Virus record (IMG/VR): IMGVR_UViG_2563366824_000009
Reading direction: 5' to 3' (one strand)
Length of the DNA: 30,634 nucleotides
Source of the DNA: a virus
Taxonomy: Duplodnaviria > Heunggongvirae > Uroviricota > Caudoviricetes
Shown: piece after piece, positions 4,495 through 30,634 of the stretch
Layout of the letters: every line of letters starts with the position of its first letter
Numbering within the stretch: the stretch's first letter is position 1
Notes under the pieces: generated by a model
Seen by the model: only the letters and a program-made list of their open reading frames with translations
What the model was told of the DNA's origin: nothing
Database searches by the model: none
Translations under genes and position numbers: made by a program

Positions 4495-6717
4495 TTGGCT
4501 GTTCAATTCGCTTATCCGTGGAACGTCCCACGGTCGGCAATCTCCAGCCCATACCTTACTTATGAGCAACAGCATCGCCGCGACCGTATGTTCGCGGCTT
4601 TGCTGCATGCGAAAAAGGTGCTTTCTCTCCAGCCCGACTGCGTGCGGTTAGATGTTTATCGCACTGCTGCGGTGCTGGAGCAAAATCAGGGTAGTCAACG
4701 AGCCAATGCATTTTTAATCAGCTTCTGCAAAAAGGCATTGCCGCGTCTTGAACTGGTCGCAAAAAAATACGAATGCGCTGGTATCAACAGCAAGGTATCA
4801 ACCGCTGTTTTTGGAAGTCATTTTGATACTCAGCAAATGCAATATCTGTCGTCACGCATGGTTAATATGGTCGCCCGATATAACCGTCTCCCGGACATGT
4901 CGCGCGCTGATGTTGACCTGTTGGCCGCTGATATTGCTAATTTCATTCGTGGTGAACTTGCCAACATTAATGACCACGGATTCGGCGAGCTTAAAACGCT
5001 GTACACCTGGTATATTCGTGCTGGCTTTATTTCCCTCCAATTCAACGTTATCCCACCACATTGGGAGCGGGTTGAAAAAAAATATGTCGGTGCGGATGAA
5101 ATCGCACCGGCTATCGCCAAAATGTTTAACGATGGGTGGTGGCGCGGTCGTTTGCGCCGTGTTGCAGCTACGTGGCGCGAACACCTGCAAATTGCAGTCG
5201 GCAACGTCAGTAAGAAAAAAAACACTTACGCGAGTAAAAACTGCGTGACTGACTGGCGTGAACAAAAGCGCCGCACTCGTGAATTTCTCAAAGGTCTGGA
5301 TCTCGAAGACGAAGACGGCAACCGTATCAGCCTAATTGAAAAATATGATGGCTCAGTTGCTAACCCTGCGATTCGCCGCTGTGAGCTCATGACCCGCATT
5401 CGTGGGTTTGAAAACATCTGTAATGAGCTCGGTTATGTCGGTGAGTTTTACACTCTAACCGCGCCGTCAAAATATCACGCCACGACTAAAGCCGGTTACC
5501 GTAACAGCAAATGGAGCGGTGCCAGCCCGGCTGACACGCAAAACTATCTAACCGGTATCTGGGCGCGTATCCGTGCCAAACTACATCGGGAAGATGTCCG
5601 TATTTTCGGTATTCGTGTCGCCGAGCCCCATCACGACGGCACTCCACACTGGCACATGCTGATGTTCATGCTGCCGGAAGATGTTGAATATGTTCGCTCC
5701 ATCGTCCGTAAATACGCATGGAAAGAAGACCGCCACGAACTGAAAAGCGATAAATCCAAAAAAGCACGTTTCCACGCCGAGTCCATTGACCCGGAGAAAG
5801 GCAGCGCAACCGGCTATGTTGCTAAATACATTTCAAAAAATATCGACGGTTATGCTCTCGATGATGAAACCGATGATGAAAGCGGTGAGCTGCTGAAAGA
5901 GACAGCCCCCGCCGTTTCAGCATGGGCTGCGCGCTGGCACATCCGTCAGTTTCAGTTTATTGGTGGTGCGCCGGTGACGGTTTACCGTGAGTTGCGTCGC
6001 CTCGCTGATACCGAAACCGCGCACGGTCTGAGCGTTGAGTTTGCCGCCGTCCATGATGCCGCCGACGCTGGTGACTGGGCTGGTTATGTTAATGCTCAGG
6101 GTGGGCCGTTTGTCCGTCGCGATGATTTACAGGTGCGCACACTGTATGAACCGCGTACCGAGCTTAATCAGTACGGTGAGGAAACGGTATGTATTAAGGG
6201 GGTCTACGATTCCTCCATAGGTGCAGGAAGCCCGATTTTAACCCGGCTCACTCAGTGGAAGATTGTTCCGAAGCGTGCTGTTGATTTGGCCGTTGACCTT
6301 CAGGACGGCAAAGCCGTCCCTCGGAGTTCTGTCAATAACTGTACGGGAAGCGAAAGCGATCCACCGATACTGGATTTAACAAAACCACTGAGTCGGCGTG
6401 AAAGACGAGAATTAACCAACCGACTCAGGAAGCAAAAGCCAGCAGCACGGCGAAAATTCATCCACGGAACGGATGAGCAAAACGCAGCTATAGCTAAAAC
6501 TATCGATGAGATACATCTGACAACCGGCATTAATATCAGCCGGGGCGAAGCCCTGCACCTGATGGCCGGTGGTAAAAGTTGTTTTGATGGTAAATGGCTA
6601 CGCGGAACGGCCAAAGGAGAAATATTTTCCGCAGCACCATCGCATGAGGCTAAAGCTCGGAAAATCCTTAATCGTGTTGCGGCGATGGCTGAAGCATCAA
6701 AACCAATACATGAGTAA
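4495..6717 (+). CDS. A: Rolling-circle replication initiator endonuclease (P2 gpA family)
   Basis: 740 aa; TTG start preceded by GGGGGG SD; HUH-like PHWHMLMF and paired tyrosines in YVAKYISKNIDGY. Confidence 0.9.
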   Translation: MAVQFAYPWNVPRSAISSPYLTYEQQHRRDRMFAALLHAKKVLSLQPDCVRLDVYRTAAVLEQNQGSQRANAFLISFCKKALPRLELVAKKYECAGINSKVSTAVFGSHFDTQQMQYLSSRMVNMVARYNRLPDMSRADVDLLAADIANFIRGELANINDHGFGELKTLYTWYIRAGFISLQFNVIPPHWERVEKKYVGADEIAPAIAKMFNDGWWRGRLRRVAATWREHLQIAVGNVSKKKNTYASKNCVTDWREQKRRTREFLKGLDLEDEDGNRISLIEKYDGSVANPAIRRCELMTRIRGFENICNELGYVGEFYTLTAPSKYHATTKAGYRNSKWSGASPADTQNYLTGIWARIRAKLHREDVRIFGIRVAEPHHDGTPHWHMLMFMLPEDVEYVRSIVRKYAWKEDRHELKSDKSKKARFHAESIDPEKGSATGYVAKYISKNIDGYALDDETDDESGELLKETAPAVSAWAARWHIRQFQFIGGAPVTVYRELRRLADTETAHGLSVEFAAVHDAADAGDWAGYVNAQGGPFVRRDDLQVRTLYEPRTELNQYGEETVCIKGVYDSSIGAGSPILTRLTQWKIVPKRAVDLAVDLQDGKAVPRSSVNNCTGSESDPPILDLTKPLSRRERRELTNRLRKQKPAARRKFIHGTDEQNAAIAKTIDEIHLTTGINISRGEALHLMAGGKSCFDGKWLRGTAKGEIFSAAPSHEAKARKILNRVAAMAEASKPIHE

Positions 6718-6791
6718 TTCATATCCATATCATGCACATACAGCAATCGCTCTATTCGTTTTTTTTCTTCCCATCTTTTGCCAATACATGC

Positions 6792-6811
6792 TACTGTATA
6801 AATATACAGTA
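6792..6811. promoter_or_regulatory. LexA box (SOS operator) TACTGTATAAATATACAGTA
   Basis: Palindromic CTGT-N8-ACAG match; candidate -35 TTGCCA at 6778..6783 places the box over the -10 region; 20 nt upstream of ORF 6831. Confidence 0.7.
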
Positions 6812-6830
6812 ACCCTATGGGAGGGATTTC

Positions 6831-7013
6831 ATGGTTGGCGAACATTTCAGCCGAACGCAGCAAAAGTGGGCTTGTGTGCAATTTATTGCCGAGGTATCTC
6901 TGATTGCAAACTGCAAGCCATCAGACTTAAAGCTCGCGCTCACTCTCATTGCAGACCTAGCAAACAGCGAAAATAACGAAACCGAAGATGATAATTTTTA
7001 TAAGGCTGATTAG
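6831..7013 (+). CDS. N-terminal part of Tum-like SOS-induced gene (60 aa), ends at in-frame TAG
   Basis: GGGAGG SD 6 nt upstream of ATG; in the same reading frame as the DinI-like ORF, separated only by TAG plus one codon. Confidence 0.45.
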   Translation: MVGEHFSRTQQKWACVQFIAEVSLIANCKPSDLKLALTLIADLANSENNETEDDNFYKAD

Positions 7014-7016
7014 ATT

Positions 7017-7250
7017 ATGAGAATCAATATCACGTTGGATAAAGAGCAAAAAATTAGTCAGGCAACATTGGATGCACTTGAGGCTGAACTGTACCGCAAT
7101 CTTCAACCTATTTACCCAAAGACTGCTATCCGAATTCGCAAGGGCTCCGCTAATGGCGTTGAACTAAGCGGTTTGAAACTGGACGAAGATAAAAAACGAG
7201 TAATGGAAATCATGCAGCAGGTATGGGAGGACGATAGCTGGCTGCATTAA
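7017..7250 (+). CDS. DinI-family protein (DinI-like domain as in 186 Tum C-terminus)
   Basis: 77 aa; MRINITLDKEQ...DALEAELYRNLQ...RIRKGSANGVELSGLKLDEDKKRVMEIMQQVWEDDSW matches DinI family pattern and length. Confidence 0.85.
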   Translation: MRINITLDKEQKISQATLDALEAELYRNLQPIYPKTAIRIRKGSANGVELSGLKLDEDKKRVMEIMQQVWEDDSWLH

Positions 7251-7252
7251 CA

Positions 7253-7321
7253 AACGCCGCCGGTGCTGAAACTTGCTTTCAGTGCTGGCGGGGTTGAACA
7301 ACTCGCACCGCGAGGCGCTAG
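7253..7321 (+). repeat. Copy 1 of 69-nt structured 3' element (15-bp stem, loop CTTGC at 7257..7291)
   Basis: Begins 2 nt after the DinI-like stop; about 85 percent identical to copy 2; stem pairs fully only as plus-strand RNA (uses G-U pairs). Confidence 0.6.
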
Positions 7322-7445
7322 TTCTTCCTCTCAAAGTTTCTCGATGTTTTATTGGTTACACACCAGTGATGAATGGGACGTTACCTTAGCGGGTTTTATA
7401 GTGGCGCTGTGGCAGCACTAAATAAAATTCATTGAGGGCGATAAT

Positions 7446-7655
7446 ATGCATCGACTACCGGGCGAAATTCCGCAGCACAAAACTAAAAGCATCAAACTGA
7501 TGGCCATCGTTCATCGTCTGCAGCAGATAATGGTCAATGAGAATTTGACACCCGCCGAGCTGGTCGGGTGTGCCGAAATAGTCAGGGATAATTACGGCAA
7601 GCTGGATAGCATCAGCAAGCCGACACATTACTCACCGCCACCACGTCGACCATAG
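7446..7655 (+). CDS. Hypothetical small protein (variable region)
   Basis: 69 aa; GAGGG SD 5-6 nt upstream; followed directly by repeat copy 2. Confidence 0.45.
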   Translation: MHRLPGEIPQHKTKSIKLMAIVHRLQQIMVNENLTPAELVGCAEIVRDNYGKLDSISKPTHYSPPPRRP

Positions 7656-7657
7656 AT

Positions 7658-7726
7658 AACGCCGCCGGAGTTGAAACTCGCTTTCAGGTCTGGCGGGGTT
7701 GAACAACGAGCTACGCGAGGCGTTAG
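7658..7726 (+). repeat. Copy 2 of 69-nt structured 3' element (stem-loop 7662..7696)
   Basis: Begins 2 nt after the stop of ORF 7446..7655; compensatory substitutions relative to copy 1 preserve pairing. Confidence 0.6.
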
Positions 7727-7788
7727 CCGGTCATAGCGTCGCAAATACTTCAACCGTCTGCTGGTTAAATAATTCGAGGTTTTTGGAC

Positions 7789-7983
7789 ATGCAAAATCCC
7801 CTTTCATCGAAAAATGACCCGTTTGCCGATTGGGCAAAGAATCTGACTTTAATGGCTTTAAATAACGACCTGAGCTCTCGCGAGGTGGAAAGCTACACCG
7901 CAAAAATGGTCGAGCAGGCCGGTAAAGATGAGCTATCAGTCGTTATCAAACACCTGTTAAATCACATCAGAATGCGCAAATAA
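7789..7983 (+). CDS. Hypothetical small protein (variable region); possibly distant paralogue of 7446..7655
   Basis: Start moved to ATG 7789 (MQNPLSS...) with GAGG about 9 nt upstream, because the ORF-track start overlaps repeat copy 2. Confidence 0.4.
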   Translation: MQNPLSSKNDPFADWAKNLTLMALNNDLSSREVESYTAKMVEQAGKDELSVVIKHLLNHIRMRK

Positions 7984-7999
7984 GAGGAACTATATAAAT

Positions 8000-8101
8000 A
8001 TGTTATCTCTCGTTTATGAAAATCCGTGGACGACGATTTTTCTGATGATTGTTGCCAGCATGTGCCTCAACAGTGTTATTGGCGCATTGCGCGGTCATTA
8101 A
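8000..8101 (+). CDS. 33-aa hydrophobic peptide MLSLVYENPWTTIFLMIVASMCLNSVIGALRGH (small membrane peptide)
   Basis: Not in ORF track (too short); AAGAGGA at 7982..7988 before ATG 8000; single predicted TM helix; followed by terminator. Confidence 0.35.
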   Translation: MLSLVYENPWTTIFLMIVASMCLNSVIGALRGH

Positions 8102-8122
8102 TCGCGACAAAACCAGACTAAA

Positions 8123-8150
8123 GCCGGCACCCTGAATGCCGGTTTTTTTA
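8123..8150 (+). terminator. Rho-independent terminator (CCGGCA / TGCCGG stem, 7-nt loop, T7 tract)
   Basis: Stem 8124..8129 with 8137..8142 followed by TTTTTTT at 8143..8149. Confidence 0.55.
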
Positions 8151-8309
8151 TGCCATTTTTCCGCGAATTTCCCGTTTTTTAGTCGTGCATGCATCAGGTG
8201 CATGGTTTTGCATGCGTCAGTCTTGCCCGTTCTGTTCGTGCGCCGCCAGAGCTAGCGCGGATCCAGAGTTGTCATGCAACTGCATTAAAACCGCCCCATA
8301 AAGCGGGCA

Positions 8310-8328
8310 GGCGTGGCGGGGAAAGCAT
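8310..8328. other. cos cohesive-end site GGCGTGGCGGGGAAAGCAT (186/P2 type)
   Basis: 19-mer matches the P2/186 cohesive-end sequence as recalled from memory (0-2 mismatches); position between A-side genes and portal Q as in P2 prophage maps. Confidence 0.55.
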
Positions 8329-8532
8329 TGCGCGCCAGCGGTGGTGCGTATTATTAAAAATTATCGTCTGAGAACGTCGTGACGGCGCTGTAGTGGCCGG
8401 GTGTGATCGTGGGCGCGTGGTGCGTCTGTGGCGTGGTGCTAAAGGATGGGATCAGTTGCACAATTTTACGGTTTCGCTTTGGCTAATATCCATATTGAGA
8501 CTTTATGTTCCCCACAACAGTTGGAGGCTTTA

Positions 8533-8757
8533 ATGGATAACTATCATATTACAAAAGATGGCGATAAGTGGAAGTTGCAAAAAGAGGGCAATGACCGCCC
8601 TAGCAAGACCGCGACCACAAAGGCCGAGCTGATTAAAACAACATCTGAGTTTATGTCGAACAAAACAGGCTCGGTCAAAATTCACAAGGAAGATGGGAAA
8701 ATTCAGGAAGAACGCACTTATCAGAGAAAAGATGATCCTAAAAAGTCTAAAGGCTAA
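8533..8757 (+). CDS. DUF2188-like small protein
   Basis: 74 aa from ATG 8533 with GGAGG SD; pattern YHITKDGDKWKL...GSVKIHKEDGKIQEERTYQRKDDP resembles the DUF2188 family. Confidence 0.5.
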   Translation: MDNYHITKDGDKWKLQKEGNDRPSKTATTKAELIKTTSEFMSNKTGSVKIHKEDGKIQEERTYQRKDDPKKSKG

Positions 8758-8760
8758 CAT

Positions 8761-8785
8761 AGCAAAAGCCGCCAAAATGGCGGCT
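8761..8785 (-). terminator. Terminator hairpin downstream of portal gene (8-bp stem AGCCGCCA/TGGCGGCT, loop AAA)
   Basis: Perfect inverted repeat 8767..8785; T-rich on minus strand after the stem; also lies 3' of the plus-strand DUF2188 gene. Confidence 0.5.
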
Positions 8786-8795
8786 TAAAAGGTGA

Positions 8796-9842
8796 TTATT
8801 CCGGGTTGTCGAGTGTGTACTCTTTGAACCTGATGACCTCCATACCGAGCCAGTCGTTTACCTCCCTGAACCTATCCTGCAGGGGTGACAGCTCATTACG
8901 CACAAATACCTTTGCCACCTTCTCAACGTCACCGAGTGAACCGATATTCTCGGGCTTGCCGCCCATGAGCTGGAACGGTACGCGGTGCGCGTCCATCAGA
9001 TCGGCGGCACTGGCCTTCTTGATGTTGAAAAAGTCATCCTTTGTGGCGACCTCGCTCAGTGGCACGATTTTGATGCCGTCCGGTTTTCCGCCGGGAGCGT
9101 AGAAAAACAGGTTCTTAAAGTTGCCGAGCCCTTTTGAGTTGCGCATCGCCTCGCGCAGCGATTCGACGTCGGTCGCGCTCTGCGCCGGGTCAGTCACATA
9201 CATGATGTAACCCGCGTGCGCGCCGTTCTGATAATACTTGCGGCGGAACAGCGTCGCGGATTCATTCAGCCAGGCGGAATTTAGCGCGCTGAGATATTCG
9301 GGCAGGCCGTAAATCTCCTGATTAATGTCGGGCTCCAGCAGGTGAAACACGGTATCAGGCGCGAACTCGTGCGGCTGGGTGAAGTTTTCCACAAACCAGA
9401 AAATCGAATCGTCGACTCCGCGTCGGGTGTATTTGGCTGGCGAGGCCAGCAGTTTGATTAACTGGCCGGTGACACTGTGGCGCTGCTCAAGAAAGGCGTT
9501 ACCGAACACCAGATAATCGAGCGCAAAGCGGCTGAAATCCTGACGGGATAACAACGGGTGCGGAATGTAGGTGCTCGCGAGCACGTTACGCTTAACATAA
9601 ATTGGCGAGCTGTGATGCACGGCAGAGCGCAGGCTCTTTGCCAGCCCTGAGAAGCTGACCGGCGGCTCGTACCATTTGCCGTTACTGATGCACTCGACGT
9701 AATCCAGAATGTCGCGCTTATCGAGTACCGGCACCGGCTCGCCGAAGGTGAACGCTGTCGTTTTTGGCGGTGCGCTGGCGGTCAGTTGTTGTGGTTTGCT
9801 GGCCTTTTGTGCGTTGGCTTTACGGGATTTTTGTTTACCCAT
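8796..9842 (-). CDS. Q: Portal protein (P2 gpQ family)
   Basis: 348 aa (P2 Q about 344 aa); adjacent to and co-oriented with terminase P, divergent from O. Confidence 0.9.
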   Translation of the reverse strand: MGKQKSRKANAQKASKPQQLTASAPPKTTAFTFGEPVPVLDKRDILDYVECISNGKWYEPPVSFSGLAKSLRSAVHHSSPIYVKRNVLASTYIPHPLLSRQDFSRFALDYLVFGNAFLEQRHSVTGQLIKLLASPAKYTRRGVDDSIFWFVENFTQPHEFAPDTVFHLLEPDINQEIYGLPEYLSALNSAWLNESATLFRRKYYQNGAHAGYIMYVTDPAQSATDVESLREAMRNSKGLGNFKNLFFYAPGGKPDGIKIVPLSEVATKDDFFNIKKASAADLMDAHRVPFQLMGGKPENIGSLGDVEKVAKVFVRNELSPLQDRFREVNDWLGMEVIRFKEYTLDNPE

Positions 9843-9843
9843 T

Positions 9844-11613
9844 TTAGTTGAACTCCAGAATAGATTTAGGCTGCATGCCGCTACCGGCAGAAAGCGGTTC
9901 GTTTAACAGGGCGTGCATGGTCGCCCATGCGATATCGGCGTGGCTGGCTTCCTCGGTGCGGCTGGCCTCATAGGTGGCGCTGCGCCCGCTGCTGGTCATG
10001 GTTTTGCGGATGGACATAAACGACTGCGTGACGTCGGTTGCTCCGGCGTCGTACTCCAGACAGCCACGGCGAATGGTGTCTTTCGCCTTGAGTACCATTG
10101 CGGTTTTCATTTCAGGTGTGTAACGGATGCCGCGTGCCGCCGGGTAAAATGAGCGCACCAGCTGGAACACGCCGAGACCGAGGCCGGTTGCGTCAATGCC
10201 GATGTATTCGACGTTGTATTTCTCGGTCAGCTTGCGGATGCCCTCTGCCTGTGCTGCAAAATCCATGCCCTTCCACTGGTGGTGCTCCAGCATGCGGAAC
10301 TTGCCACCAGAGACCACCGGCGGCGCGAGCACGACGCACCCGGCACTGTCGCCGGTGTGTGACGGGTCGTAGCCAATCCAGACAGGACGAGAGCCGAACG
10401 GATGGTCGGCGAACGGGGCAAAGTCCTCCCATTCCTCCATCACATCGACCATGCAGCGCTGCAGCTCCTCGAACGGGAATACCGACGCTTTATCGTCGAC
10501 AAACTCGCACATAAACAGGTTCTTAAAGTCCTCATCACTGTTTTCGCGTTTGAGCTGGTCGAGGTCGAACAGGGTGCAGCCACCCGCAAGGGCGTCCTCA
10601 ATGGTGACAATCTGCCGCCACTGGCCATCGTCGCAGAGCTGGCCACCGGCGAGCGCGCTGTGACTGATGTCGATTTCGATGCGGTCGGCAATCCGGCTGC
10701 GCCCCTTGTTGAACAGCTCGCCAGACCAGAAGGGGTAAGCGCCGTGCGCCAGCGTGGAAGGTGTCGAAAAATAGGTCGAGCGCAGGTGCTTTTGCGAGGC
10801 CATGCCCGAGGCGACTTTGCGCAGTTTCTGAAAATTCGGGATCCAGAATATTTCATCGACATACAGATCGCCGTTATGGCTCTGCGCGGTGTTGGAATTG
10901 GTACCGAGAAAAATCAGTTTTGCGCCGTTGTTACCGATGACAATCGGGTCGCCAGTCAGGTCAACGTCGACCAGTCGCGCAAACTGGATGATGTATTCGC
11001 GGAACACGTAAGCCTGCGTTTTACTGGCTGATAAAAATATCTGGTTATGGCCGGTTTTGAGTGCGCGCAGCAGTGCCTCGCGGGAGAAATAGAATGTCGC
11101 GCCAATCTGGCGGGATTTGAGAATGTCACGAATACGGTGCTCCAGTCCTGCGCGGTACCACTGCAACTGGTACTCGAAAGACTGGTCGAAAAATAATTCC
11201 TCTAGTTTATCGATAGCCTCGTCGCTGAAAAAATTCTTTTTCGGCTTTTTGCGCTCCCCTTTGTTGCGGTTGGCGACGTTGGGGTTAAGGTCGGCTTCGT
11301 TGCCGGTCTGGCTGTAGCGGTTGACTCGCGCCAACCGTTCAATCTGCCGTCCGAGCAGGTCAATCTCTTTGAAATCACCCCCTGTCTTTTGCGGCTTGGC
11401 GATGAGCTGAATCAGCCTAGCCTCAAGGCTGCTTTCAACGCGGGAAATCGGCGCGATGCCGTCCCAGCCGTCGCGCTGCTTCCAGCTCTGCACGGTCGGG
11501 CGCTTGACCTGCAGCATTTCGGCAATCTGTGGCACGGAAAAACCCTGCCAGTAAAGCAGCGATGCCTGCCGTCGCGGGTCATGCAACAAGGTTGTATCGG
11601 TGGAAATGGTCAT
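9844..11613 (-). CDS. P: Terminase large (ATPase) subunit (P2 gpP family)
   Basis: 589 aa; position and length as P2 P. Confidence 0.9.
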   Translation of the reverse strand: MTISTDTTLLHDPRRQASLLYWQGFSVPQIAEMLQVKRPTVQSWKQRDGWDGIAPISRVESSLEARLIQLIAKPQKTGGDFKEIDLLGRQIERLARVNRYSQTGNEADLNPNVANRNKGERKKPKKNFFSDEAIDKLEELFFDQSFEYQLQWYRAGLEHRIRDILKSRQIGATFYFSREALLRALKTGHNQIFLSASKTQAYVFREYIIQFARLVDVDLTGDPIVIGNNGAKLIFLGTNSNTAQSHNGDLYVDEIFWIPNFQKLRKVASGMASQKHLRSTYFSTPSTLAHGAYPFWSGELFNKGRSRIADRIEIDISHSALAGGQLCDDGQWRQIVTIEDALAGGCTLFDLDQLKRENSDEDFKNLFMCEFVDDKASVFPFEELQRCMVDVMEEWEDFAPFADHPFGSRPVWIGYDPSHTGDSAGCVVLAPPVVSGGKFRMLEHHQWKGMDFAAQAEGIRKLTEKYNVEYIGIDATGLGLGVFQLVRSFYPAARGIRYTPEMKTAMVLKAKDTIRRGCLEYDAGATDVTQSFMSIRKTMTSSGRSATYEASRTEEASHADIAWATMHALLNEPLSAGSGMQPKSILEFN

Positions 11614-29468: not shown

Positions 29469-30634
29469 TAACGGGGATGGCAATTGACGCCGGTGCCAGC
29501 CTTGCACCGGCATTTATGTTGACGCTGAACAGCCAGGACATTACCAGCAATTTTAGTGACCGATTGATTTCTCTCACCATGACCGATAACCGGGGTTTTG
29601 AGGCTGACCAGCTCGATATTGAGCTTGATGATACCGACGGGAAAGTTGAGTTACCCCTGCGCGGGGCAGTGCTGACGCTGTGGCTTGGCTGGCAGGGCTC
29701 GGCGTTGCTGAATAAGGGGGATTTTACGGTCGATGAGATTGAGCACCGGGGAGCGCCTGACACCCTGACCATCCGGGCGCGCAGCGCGGACTTTCGCGGC
29801 ACGCTAAATTCCAGGCGTGAAGAGTCATGGCATGACACCACCATCGGAGAACTGGTCAGCACCATCGCAAAACGCAATAAACTGACGGCCAGTGTCGCTG
29901 ATTCACTGAAAAAAATCCCGGTACCGCATATCGACCAGTCGCAGGAGTCCGACGCGGTGTTTCTGACCCGGCTAGCTGACCGAAACGGAGCTGCGGTGTC
30001 AGTGAAAGCGGGGAAATTGCTGTTTCTGAAAGTCGGTAGTGCGATGACGGCCAGCGGCAGACCCATCCCGCAAATGACGCTGACCCGTAGCAATGGTGAC
30101 CGTCATCAATTTGCTATTGCCGACCGTGGGGCTTATACCGGCGTAACGGCAAAATGGTTGCACACCAAAGACCCGAAGCCGCAAAAGCAAAAAGTGACGC
30201 TGAAACGCCAGCCAAAAGAGAAACACCTACGCGCACTGGAGCACCCGAAAGCAAAACCTGTCAGCAAAAAGACAAAGGCCAAAAAAGAGCAGGAGGCTCG
30301 CGAGGGTGAGTATATGGCCGGTGAAGCCGATAACGTGCTGGCGCTGACAACGGTCTACGCATCAAAGGCGCAGGCGATGCGTGCCGCTCAGGCTAAGTGG
30401 GATAAACTGCAGCGAGGCGTTGCGGAGTTTTCAATCACACTGGCGCTAGGGCGAGCGGATTTATTTCCTGAGACGCCTGTACGTGTGTCGGGCTTTAAGC
30501 GCGTCATAGACGAGCAGGCATGGTTAATCAGCAAGGTGACCCACAACCTCAATAATAACGGTTTCACGACGGGCTTAGAGCTTGAGGTTAAACTCTCCGA
30601 TGTGGAGTACAGCTCAGAAGAAAATGAGGAGTGA
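29465..30634 (+). CDS. D: Tail protein D (late control D family)
   Basis: 389 aa (P2 D about 387 aa); last gene of tail cluster; stop at window end. Confidence 0.9.
   Translation: MITGMAIDAGASLAPAFMLTLNSQDITSNFSDRLISLTMTDNRGFEADQLDIELDDTDGKVELPLRGAVLTLWLGWQGSALLNKGDFTVDEIEHRGAPDTLTIRARSADFRGTLNSRREESWHDTTIGELVSTIAKRNKLTASVADSLKKIPVPHIDQSQESDAVFLTRLADRNGAAVSVKAGKLLFLKVGSAMTASGRPIPQMTLTRSNGDRHQFAIADRGAYTGVTAKWLHTKDPKPQKQKVTLKRQPKEKHLRALEHPKAKPVSKKTKAKKEQEAREGEYMAGEADNVLALTTVYASKAQAMRAAQAKWDKLQRGVAEFSITLALGRADLFPETPVRVSGFKRVIDEQAWLISKVTHNLNNNGFTTGLELEVKLSDVEYSSEENEE

Follow-up and report, generated by a model that had tools for sequence, protein, structure and literature searches.

A conserved 33-codon gene for a small membrane protein at the cos-proximal edge of 186/P2-like prophages, probably under SOS control in one of them

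Small membrane proteins are systematically overlooked by annotation. Those of the AcrZ type act by binding a larger membrane protein. TisB and DinQ are LexA-regulated, and the 29-amino-acid (aa) protein SidA of Caulobacter is an SOS-induced, LexA-controlled inhibitor of cell division. Morons, defined for HK97 and HK022, are units of promoter, gene and terminator inserted between core genes. The SOS-dependent promoter p95, a LexA site, tum, t95a, orf97 and t95b are annotated in the GenBank record of phage 186 (U32222; Brumby et al. 1996). In this record t95b is the 'p95 transcript terminator', 161 nucleotides (nt) from the right end, and orf97 expressed from a plasmid blocks 186 infection (U32222). 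The cos-proximal region between gpA and gpQ is a hotspot for accessory and defence genes of P2-like phages (Rousset et al. 2022, PMC9122126). Here we analyse a stretch of 30,634 nt of a caudoviricete virus (IMG/VR record IMGVR_UViG_2563366824_000009), called the window throughout. It is a 186/P2-like (Peduoviridae) prophage, and the region under study is 100% identical to E. coli MINF_2E. The subject is an open reading frame (ORF) of 33 codons which lies in the gpA-gpQ cos-proximal region and encodes the hydrophobic peptide MLSLVYENPWTTIFLMIVASMCLNSVIGALRGH. We conclude that it is a genuine, conserved and largely unannotated small membrane-protein gene of P2/186-like prophages, which in the window is probably SOS-controlled.

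The peptide gene was proposed in a first-pass annotation of the bare sequence, with its own Shine-Dalgarno sequence and, within 25 nt of the stop codon, a strong hairpin terminator ending in seven T. Its start and stop coordinates and its translation proved exact, and the two flanking signals were found as well. The unit comprises:

7982-7988, plus strand: Shine-Dalgarno sequence AAGAGGA, 11 nt 5' of the ATG, overlapping the stop codon of a 64-aa ORF
8000-8101, plus strand: 33-codon peptide ORF, ATG 8000-8002, TAA 8099-8101
8102-8119, plus strand: non-coding spacer between stop codon and terminator, weakly conserved, with many insertions and deletions (indels)
8120-8149, plus strand: intrinsic terminator, hairpin plus T7, orthologue of 186 t95b

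The ORF alone is unremarkable. As many as 82 ORFs of at least 20 aa overlap positions 6000-10500, i.e., a frame of 33 codons is by itself within chance. Therefore, its status as a gene has to be judged by comparison with related sequences. The comparison set consists of 71 homologous loci, window included. A tblastn search of a phage collection found the peptide in 15 records, from phages of Escherichia, Salmonella and Klebsiella. Scanning of species-representative genomes added two loci, one from Citrobacter and one from Escherichia sp., few because such representatives rarely carry a prophage of this kind. IMG/VR contributed 54 loci, and four further ones (Edwardsiella, Lelliottia, Cronobacter and one metagenome) were reached via the neighbours of the 64-aa protein. 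Of the 71 loci, 65 have an intact frame, always with 33 codons and an identical stop position, and the genera include Escherichia, Salmonella, Klebsiella, Citrobacter, Edwardsiella and Lelliottia. Thus the peptide is conserved in P2-like prophages, for which a search had been advised.

The substitution pattern was analysed in the first-collected set of 63 intact ORFs, among which 43 nucleotide sequences and 30 peptides are distinct. Out of 33 sites each, 16 vary at codon position 1, 14 at position 2 and 28 at position 3. The pooled Nei-Gojobori ratio of non-synonymous to synonymous differences (pN/pS) is 0.32 in the peptide frame versus 0.58-2.18 in the five other frames; none of 300 column shuffles fell below 0.39. 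By a tree-free count, which gives lower bounds, there were at least 46 synonymous and at least 40 non-synonymous events, compared with a neutral synonymous fraction of 22% (binomial p = 1.6e-10). Individual codons illustrate the point. Thr11 and Thr12 each use all four Thr codons, Leu15, Leu16, Ser20, Cys22 and Leu23 vary synonymously, and for Ser3 the codons TCT, TCA and TCG occur, with AGC in the copy most distant from the others. Indels tell the same story. The ORF has only three, all of them frameshifting, and gapped columns amount to 3 of 103 in the ORF as against 14 of 21 in the spacer. Mean column identity is 0.865 in the ORF (0.876, 0.928 and 0.818 by codon position) versus 0.57 in the 18-nt spacer. 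The lack of a synonymous versus non-synonymous pattern had been named beforehand as the finding that would tell against a gene; the pattern which emerged is clearly coding. By its conservation the ORF is placed beyond chance, and on these alignments positions 8000-8101 almost certainly constitute a real protein-coding gene.

The signals around the ORF are preserved to a similar extent. The terminator stem, AAAGCCGGCA (8120-8129) paired with TGCCGGTTT (8137-8145), encloses a 7-nt loop and overlaps the seven T at 8143-8149. Its RNA fold has -14.2 kcal/mol (z = -2.4), and only 1 of 200 shuffles was as stable. A plus-strand pattern scan of the window missed this hairpin; the same scan listed the orthologous hairpin in relatives. 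The terminator was found in 63 of 66 loci, and the remaining three carry a single stem mismatch. Of 66 intact loci, 59 retain a Shine-Dalgarno-like core (AAGGA, GAGGA, AGGA or TGGA). Among these 59 are two whose upstream DNA is unrelated, with GAGGA 5 nt from the ATG. The conserved unit consequently consists of Shine-Dalgarno sequence, ORF and terminator, and its position is fixed: the peptide gene starts 294-311 nt before cos in every locus in which cos was found. Two further candidates were discarded. A terminator-like hairpin inside the ORF (8010-8033) is broken, not compensated, by changes in relatives (GTT to ATT, ACG to ACA). The GTG-extended version of 55 aa which is annotated in phage SEN1 extends into a repeat element, and other lineages are unrelated there.

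The gene is largely missing from annotation. It is carried as a single chromosomal copy by 94 of 5426 complete E. coli genomes, and on at least 1000 contigs gene callers have predicted the exact peptide, under the names 'hypothetical' or 'uncharacterised' protein. Among phage records it is annotated as a coding sequence in one, Klebsiella phage ST147-VIM1phi7.1 (QBQ71544.1). In the E. coli loci which we inspected RefSeq/PGAP leaves it uncalled or calls an antisense ORF there which is not conserved. Some lineages of P2-like phages carry the gene and others lack it; phage 186 itself does not have it. A phmmer search against 1.84 billion cluster representatives returned four close relatives and one spurious match, a 933-aa membrane protein, but no distant family. 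A PDB sequence search with the peptide gave nothing meaningful. Pfam, PHROG and NCBIfam contain no family for it, the best Pfam match being a 10-residue one to DUF883_C with E = 0.21.

What kind of protein does this gene encode? The peptide had been described as a single hydrophobic helix. The maximum of the Kyte-Doolittle 19-residue average, 2.09 for residues 12-30, agrees with this, as does the AlphaFold2 model with helices at residues 2-7 and 9-32 and a mean pLDDT (predicted local distance difference test) of 87.6. The predicted layout is a short N-terminal helix, a kink at N8-P9, a transmembrane helix of approximately residues 10-30, and a basic C-terminus (R31). On these predictions the product is very likely a membrane-inserted single helix. 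The acidic N-terminus together with the basic C-terminus suggests an N-out, C-in topology by the positive-inside rule; R31 would then lie in the cytoplasm, and the YENPW motif, conserved near the N-terminus, would be placed at the periplasmic interface. In the 30 peptide variants M1, L2, Y6, W10, T11, T12, F14, L15, C22, S25 and I27 are invariant, and E7, L23, N24, G28, L30 and R31 nearly so. Small and polar residues in a transmembrane helix, a mid-membrane Asn included, are known to drive helix-helix association. The conserved T11, T12, S20, C22, N24, S25 and G28 may provide such contacts, by which the peptide would bind and modulate a larger membrane protein of host or phage, or associate with itself.

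The best reading of its role is that of an accessory, moron-like small inner-membrane protein. The likeliest outcome would be an accessory effect in the lysogen or the induced cell, such as superinfection exclusion or an altered envelope physiology. A partner-binding or exclusion-type role in particular we put forward tentatively, as a possibility somewhat short of even. Of phage exclusion and lysis modulation, both also named in the first-pass annotation, exclusion is favoured by one positional hint, namely that the peptide gene stands in place of 186 orf97. It is rather unlikely that the peptide is a minimal single-gene effector of the hotspot, made in the lysogen or on SOS induction, which alone excludes a superinfecting phage, blocks division or collapses the membrane potential. 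If this were true, it would be the shortest cargo of the P2/186 hotspot and a functional replacement for 186 Orf97. The 64-aa protein encoded upstream is predicted to form a three-helix bundle (pLDDT 75) and had no match to a PDB structure at E <= 0.001; therefore it provides no clue to a partnership with the peptide. A pairing of the two genes as toxin and antidote was rejected, as the peptide occurs without the 64-aa gene in about 12 loci.

The setting of the gene in the window is best understood from the 186 SOS operon. The features concerned are:

4495-6717, plus strand: replication endonuclease gene, upstream of the p95 homologue
6768-6811, plus strand: homologue of the p95 SOS promoter, -35 TTCCCA at 6768-6773 and -10 TACTGT at 6792-6797, by alignment to annotated phage 186 p95
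6792-6811, plus strand: perfect LexA box TACTGTATAAATATACAGTA, overlapping the p95-like -10 and aligning to the 186 LexA site
6831-7013, plus strand: 60-aa Tum-like ORF, phrog_1993
7017-7250, plus strand: DinI-family gene
7446-7655, plus strand: 69-aa ORF
7789-7983, plus strand: 64-aa ORF, TAA 7981-7983, phrog_2454 (function unknown), predicted to form three helices, in most but not all loci the gene next upstream of the peptide gene
8310-8328, strand not assigned: cos cohesive-end sequence GGCGTGGCGGGGAAAGCAT, noted as 'identical to 186 cos' in the PSP3 record

Positions 6768-6811 align to p95 and the LexA site of 186, and positions 8120-8149 to 186 t95b (30436-30463 of 186, about 160 nt before cos). 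A pattern scan for terminator-like sites on the plus strand between 6811 and 8000 found none. Therefore, the peptide gene is most simply the last cistron of a LexA-controlled operon. The promoter scan detected no promoter of its own in the window. By homology to 186, SOS co-transcription of the peptide gene from p95 in the window is, on balance, the more probable arrangement. The operon would run from the LexA box at 6792-6811 through the Tum-like ORF, DinI, the 69-aa and the 64-aa ORF to the peptide gene and the t95b-type terminator. The SOS response would de-repress p95, and the peptide would be translated from its own Shine-Dalgarno sequence or by re-initiation 16 nt past the stop codon of the upstream ORF. 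The t95a partial terminator of 186 is absent from the window. Behind p95 the 60-aa ORF stands in place of the full Tum protein of 146 aa; its SEN1 homologue is annotated 'UV induction of bacteriophage'.

A different picture emerges in a number of relatives. A LexA box is located within 3 kb upstream of the gene in about half of the loci and the rest have none. The 64-aa gene precedes the peptide gene in most relatives, with 16 nt between its end and the ATG; SEN1-type phages have a repeat element directly adjoining the Shine-Dalgarno sequence of the peptide gene. Eight loci have as their closest upstream neighbour a divergent gene, at a distance of 330-400 nt. Seven of these eight stand-alone loci could be aligned, and in an otherwise diverged spacer they share an invariant TTGTTA-N19-TATAAT about 27-32 nt before the ATG. 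In some relatives, then, the gene may be a self-contained moron consisting of promoter, Shine-Dalgarno sequence, ORF and terminator.

Taken together, we consider it likely that the locus is a gene of 186/P2-like prophages for a 33-residue single-pass inner-membrane protein which would form the end of an SOS operon in the window; this is the best explanation available. A number of points weigh against it. A pN/pS of 0.32 indicates moderate constraint at most. Six of the 71 loci hold disrupted copies, therefore the gene is dispensable. Two of these, the otherwise different IMG/VR contigs L065 and L066, share the same 1-nt deletion in the T5 run ATTTTTCTG of codons 13-15 (about 8036-8044 of the window), which cuts the peptide to 15 residues and could be a sequencing error or recurrent slippage. 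One copy has lost its start codon (ATG to AAG) and another combines ATG to AGG with an insertion. A degraded metagenomic remnant lacks the ATG by deletion and has lost the terminator as well, and in the Cronobacter copy W10 is changed to a stop codon and the terminator is degraded. In these last two, decaying remnants, loss of the start codon or of W10 goes with a degraded terminator, and this counts for a coding gene. Further to the contrary points, the spacing of 11 nt between Shine-Dalgarno sequence and ATG is long, and seven loci have a degenerate Shine-Dalgarno sequence (AATGA). Two 18-base-pair (bp) hairpin elements (7252-7322 and 7657-7727) lie between p95 and the peptide gene and could process or stop the p95 transcript. 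The candidate promoter of the stand-alone form has an atypical 19-nt spacer and was not called by the consensus scan. Full-text literature searches for the peptide sequence gave no match, and the peptide is absent from the supplements of the O157:H7 Sakai small-gene RIBOseq paper.

Which other explanations have to be considered? A length of 33 aa, a single hydrophobic helix and a basic C-terminus would fit a type I toxin or an SOS-induced membrane-depolarising peptide of the TisB/DinQ kind, restrained by an antisense RNA or by the structure of its mRNA, and it was this likeness in size and hydrophobicity that the first-pass annotation had emphasised. Location in a LexA-controlled operon in the window, a local hairpin able to pair the Shine-Dalgarno sequence with codons 3-4, and little third-position variation in codons 1-10 can be added in its favour. 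Beyond this, the resemblance is not supported. Over 7990-8110, where an antisense promoter or small RNA was to be looked for, neither the promoter scan nor Rfam produced one. The scan found no promoter-like site on the minus strand, neither across the ORF nor immediately 3' of it, and Rfam matched nothing on either strand at gathering thresholds; consensus scans being weak evidence, this leaves room for an unconventional small RNA. Pfam and NCBIfam families of toxins (Hok/Gef, Ldr, TisB, Ibs, ShoB and others) gave no match at E <= 1. The gene starts 16 nt past the upstream stop codon, a placement usual for genes within operons. The stand-alone form combines a consensus -10 with a Shine-Dalgarno sequence and shows no evident repressing element, an arrangement that could hardly be tolerated if the product were an unchecked toxin; shuffled sequences fold as well as its mRNA (z = -0.27). 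Moreover, about half of the loci are without a LexA box within 3 kb upstream. All in all, a toxin of this kind is improbable. More improbable still, by a wide step, is that no gene exists and that the stretch is kept as DNA or RNA, be it as 3' untranslated region of the SOS transcript or as a packaging signal flanking cos, with a fortuitous reading frame. Short ORFs are frequent by chance, this one is uncalled by RefSeq/PGAP, its distance from cos is fixed at 294-311 nt, and the adjoining non-coding cos flank is also conserved with an identity of 0.68-0.83. Yet three-base periodicity, the synonymous excess (p = 1.6e-10) and a fixed stop codon are unexpected for non-coding DNA, and an ORF nearly free of indels, with three frameshifting ones only, directly adjoins an indel-rich spacer at its 3' side. 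Further, 186, PSP3 and the Yersinia phages possess the cos flank and the terminator but not the peptide stretch, therefore it is not needed for packaging.

A small ORF which stops 18-21 nt before a strong terminator also calls to mind a leader peptide, the translation of which would govern whether transcription continues past the terminator (8120-8149) into cos and the genes beyond. Rfam even offers a Thr operon leader at 8043-8150, a sub-threshold match at chance level (20 bits versus a gathering threshold of 55, E = 0.94). But the predicted folds contain no antiterminator pairing, the spacer that must form an antiterminator is the least conserved part of the region, the amino acid sequence itself is under selection, and in most relatives no plus-strand gene follows the terminator, only cos and then the converging portal gene. 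We regard attenuation as extremely improbable. Finally, the opposite strand has an ORF of 66 aa (8003-8203), which exceeds the peptide ORF in length, and minus-strand ORFs of a similar kind appear in the annotation of SW9 ('aI protein'), E. coli E66, OZ038535 and one O157:H7 genome. Of 53 distinct sequence contexts, only 3 leave a minus-strand frame open over the peptide ORF, the pN/pS of 0.67 in this frame comes with no synonymous excess (p = 0.15), and the ORF would have to cross the indel-rich spacer and the terminator. As judged from the alignments, the notion that the antisense ORF is the real gene appears refuted by lack of conservation and retains next to no probability. Minus-strand ORFs termed 'hypothetical' or 'aI protein' are annotated over the peptide gene, terminator and cos flank of loci L002 (1905-2075), L006 (1805-2002), L007 (1735-1896) and L071 (2525-2794). 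They vary in position and length between records. The antisense ORF of the window not being conserved, these look like mis-annotations which displace a real small gene.

The neighbourhood of the peptide gene contains further elements. A repeat of about 71 nt, AAACGCCGCCGGTGCTGAAACTCGCTTTCAGTGCTGGCGGGGTTGAACAACGAGC..CGCGAGGCGTTAGC, is located on the plus strand of the window at 7252-7322 and 7657-7727, in phage 186 (L070) at about 2344-2414, and in 40-odd other loci. We counted 49 instances, all on the plus strand. It is positioned directly 3' of the stop codons of differing cargo genes (DinI, the 69-aa ORF, 186 orf97) and folds into an 18-bp hairpin with compensatory changes at 4 pairs and without a T-run. 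Its 3' end coincides with module junctions: in SEN1 it abuts the Shine-Dalgarno sequence of the peptide gene, and in the window it truncates a 143-aa gene. The repeat may act in the processing or stability of RNA, or may be a linker at which cassettes are exchanged by recombination. The remnant of the 143-aa gene (phrog_2266), 19 codons plus stop, remains at 7731-7790 on the minus strand, cut at the repeat. In intact relatives the start codons of the 143-aa gene (minus strand) and the 64-aa gene (plus strand) overlap by 2 nt (CATG), therefore each promoter must sit inside the other gene. Several relatives (L008, L009 and L071, among them Klebsiella phage ST147-VIM1phi7.1 and E. coli O157:H7 strains) carry a helix-turn-helix protein and a reverse transcriptase, retron-like, farther upstream; the order is helix-turn-helix/reverse transcriptase, 143-aa gene, 64-aa gene and peptide gene.

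On the other side, the non-coding cos flank (8150-8309) is conserved and contains repeated TGCAT(G) motifs, GTGCATGCATCAGGTGCATGG, TTTGCATGCG and CTGCATT, unchanged from E. coli through Yersinia phages. Probably these are terminase recognition sequences. At 8310-8291 the minus strand has a hairpin followed by TTTTAAT, which resembles a terminator for the late transcript converging from the portal and terminase genes. These genes are located on the minus strand beyond cos. A DUF2188 gene (8446-8757, plus strand) between cos and the portal gene is present in few relatives; most have about 200 nt of non-coding DNA at this position.

Why does such a small gene matter? It occupies a fixed edge of a well-studied anti-phage hotspot and in the window is apparently SOS-controlled. 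If an exclusion, division-blocking or membrane-perturbing activity is true, a very small effector would be added to the biology of P2 and 186, and this would help to account for the distal genes of the 186-type SOS operon. Should the gene be without phenotype, it would still be an example of a conserved phage small protein. The present practical value is a corrected annotation.

The SOS operon of 186 has homologous counterparts in the window for p95, LexA box included, and for t95b, at an equal distance from cos, and the peptide gene holds the position of orf97, last before t95b. The orf97-like protein of one relative (L034) begins with a hydrophobic stretch and may be membrane-associated, as the peptide would be. 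The differences are equally evident. Orf97, with 243 aa, shows no similarity in sequence to the peptide. In the window tum has shrunk to an ORF of 60 aa, and DinI, the 69-aa and the 64-aa ORFs are inserted. The peptide occurs in P2-type phages without a nearby LexA box as well. Within the P2 cos-proximal hotspot (old, tin; PMC9122126) the peptide gene is not variable cargo; it is the fixed cos-side edge while the genes upstream change, and no family linked to defence was identified for it. The unit of about 180 bp in the eight stand-alone relatives, with candidate promoter, Shine-Dalgarno sequence, ORF and terminator, would correspond to a moron. With the type I toxins and SOS peptides TisB, DinQ, Hok, Ldr, Ibs and ShoB the peptide shares a size in the range of 26-50 aa and one hydrophobic helix. 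It differs from them in that no antisense RNA or promoter, family match or strong mRNA structure was detected, and in that its gene is operonic or stands behind a simple promoter. Although phage-borne instead of belonging to the chromosomal core, and without sequence relationship to any of them, the peptide is like the small bacterial inner-membrane proteins AcrZ, MgtS, MgrB, PmrR and CydX and Caulobacter SidA in having less than 50 aa and a single transmembrane helix, and its conserved polar and small helix residues fit helix packing.

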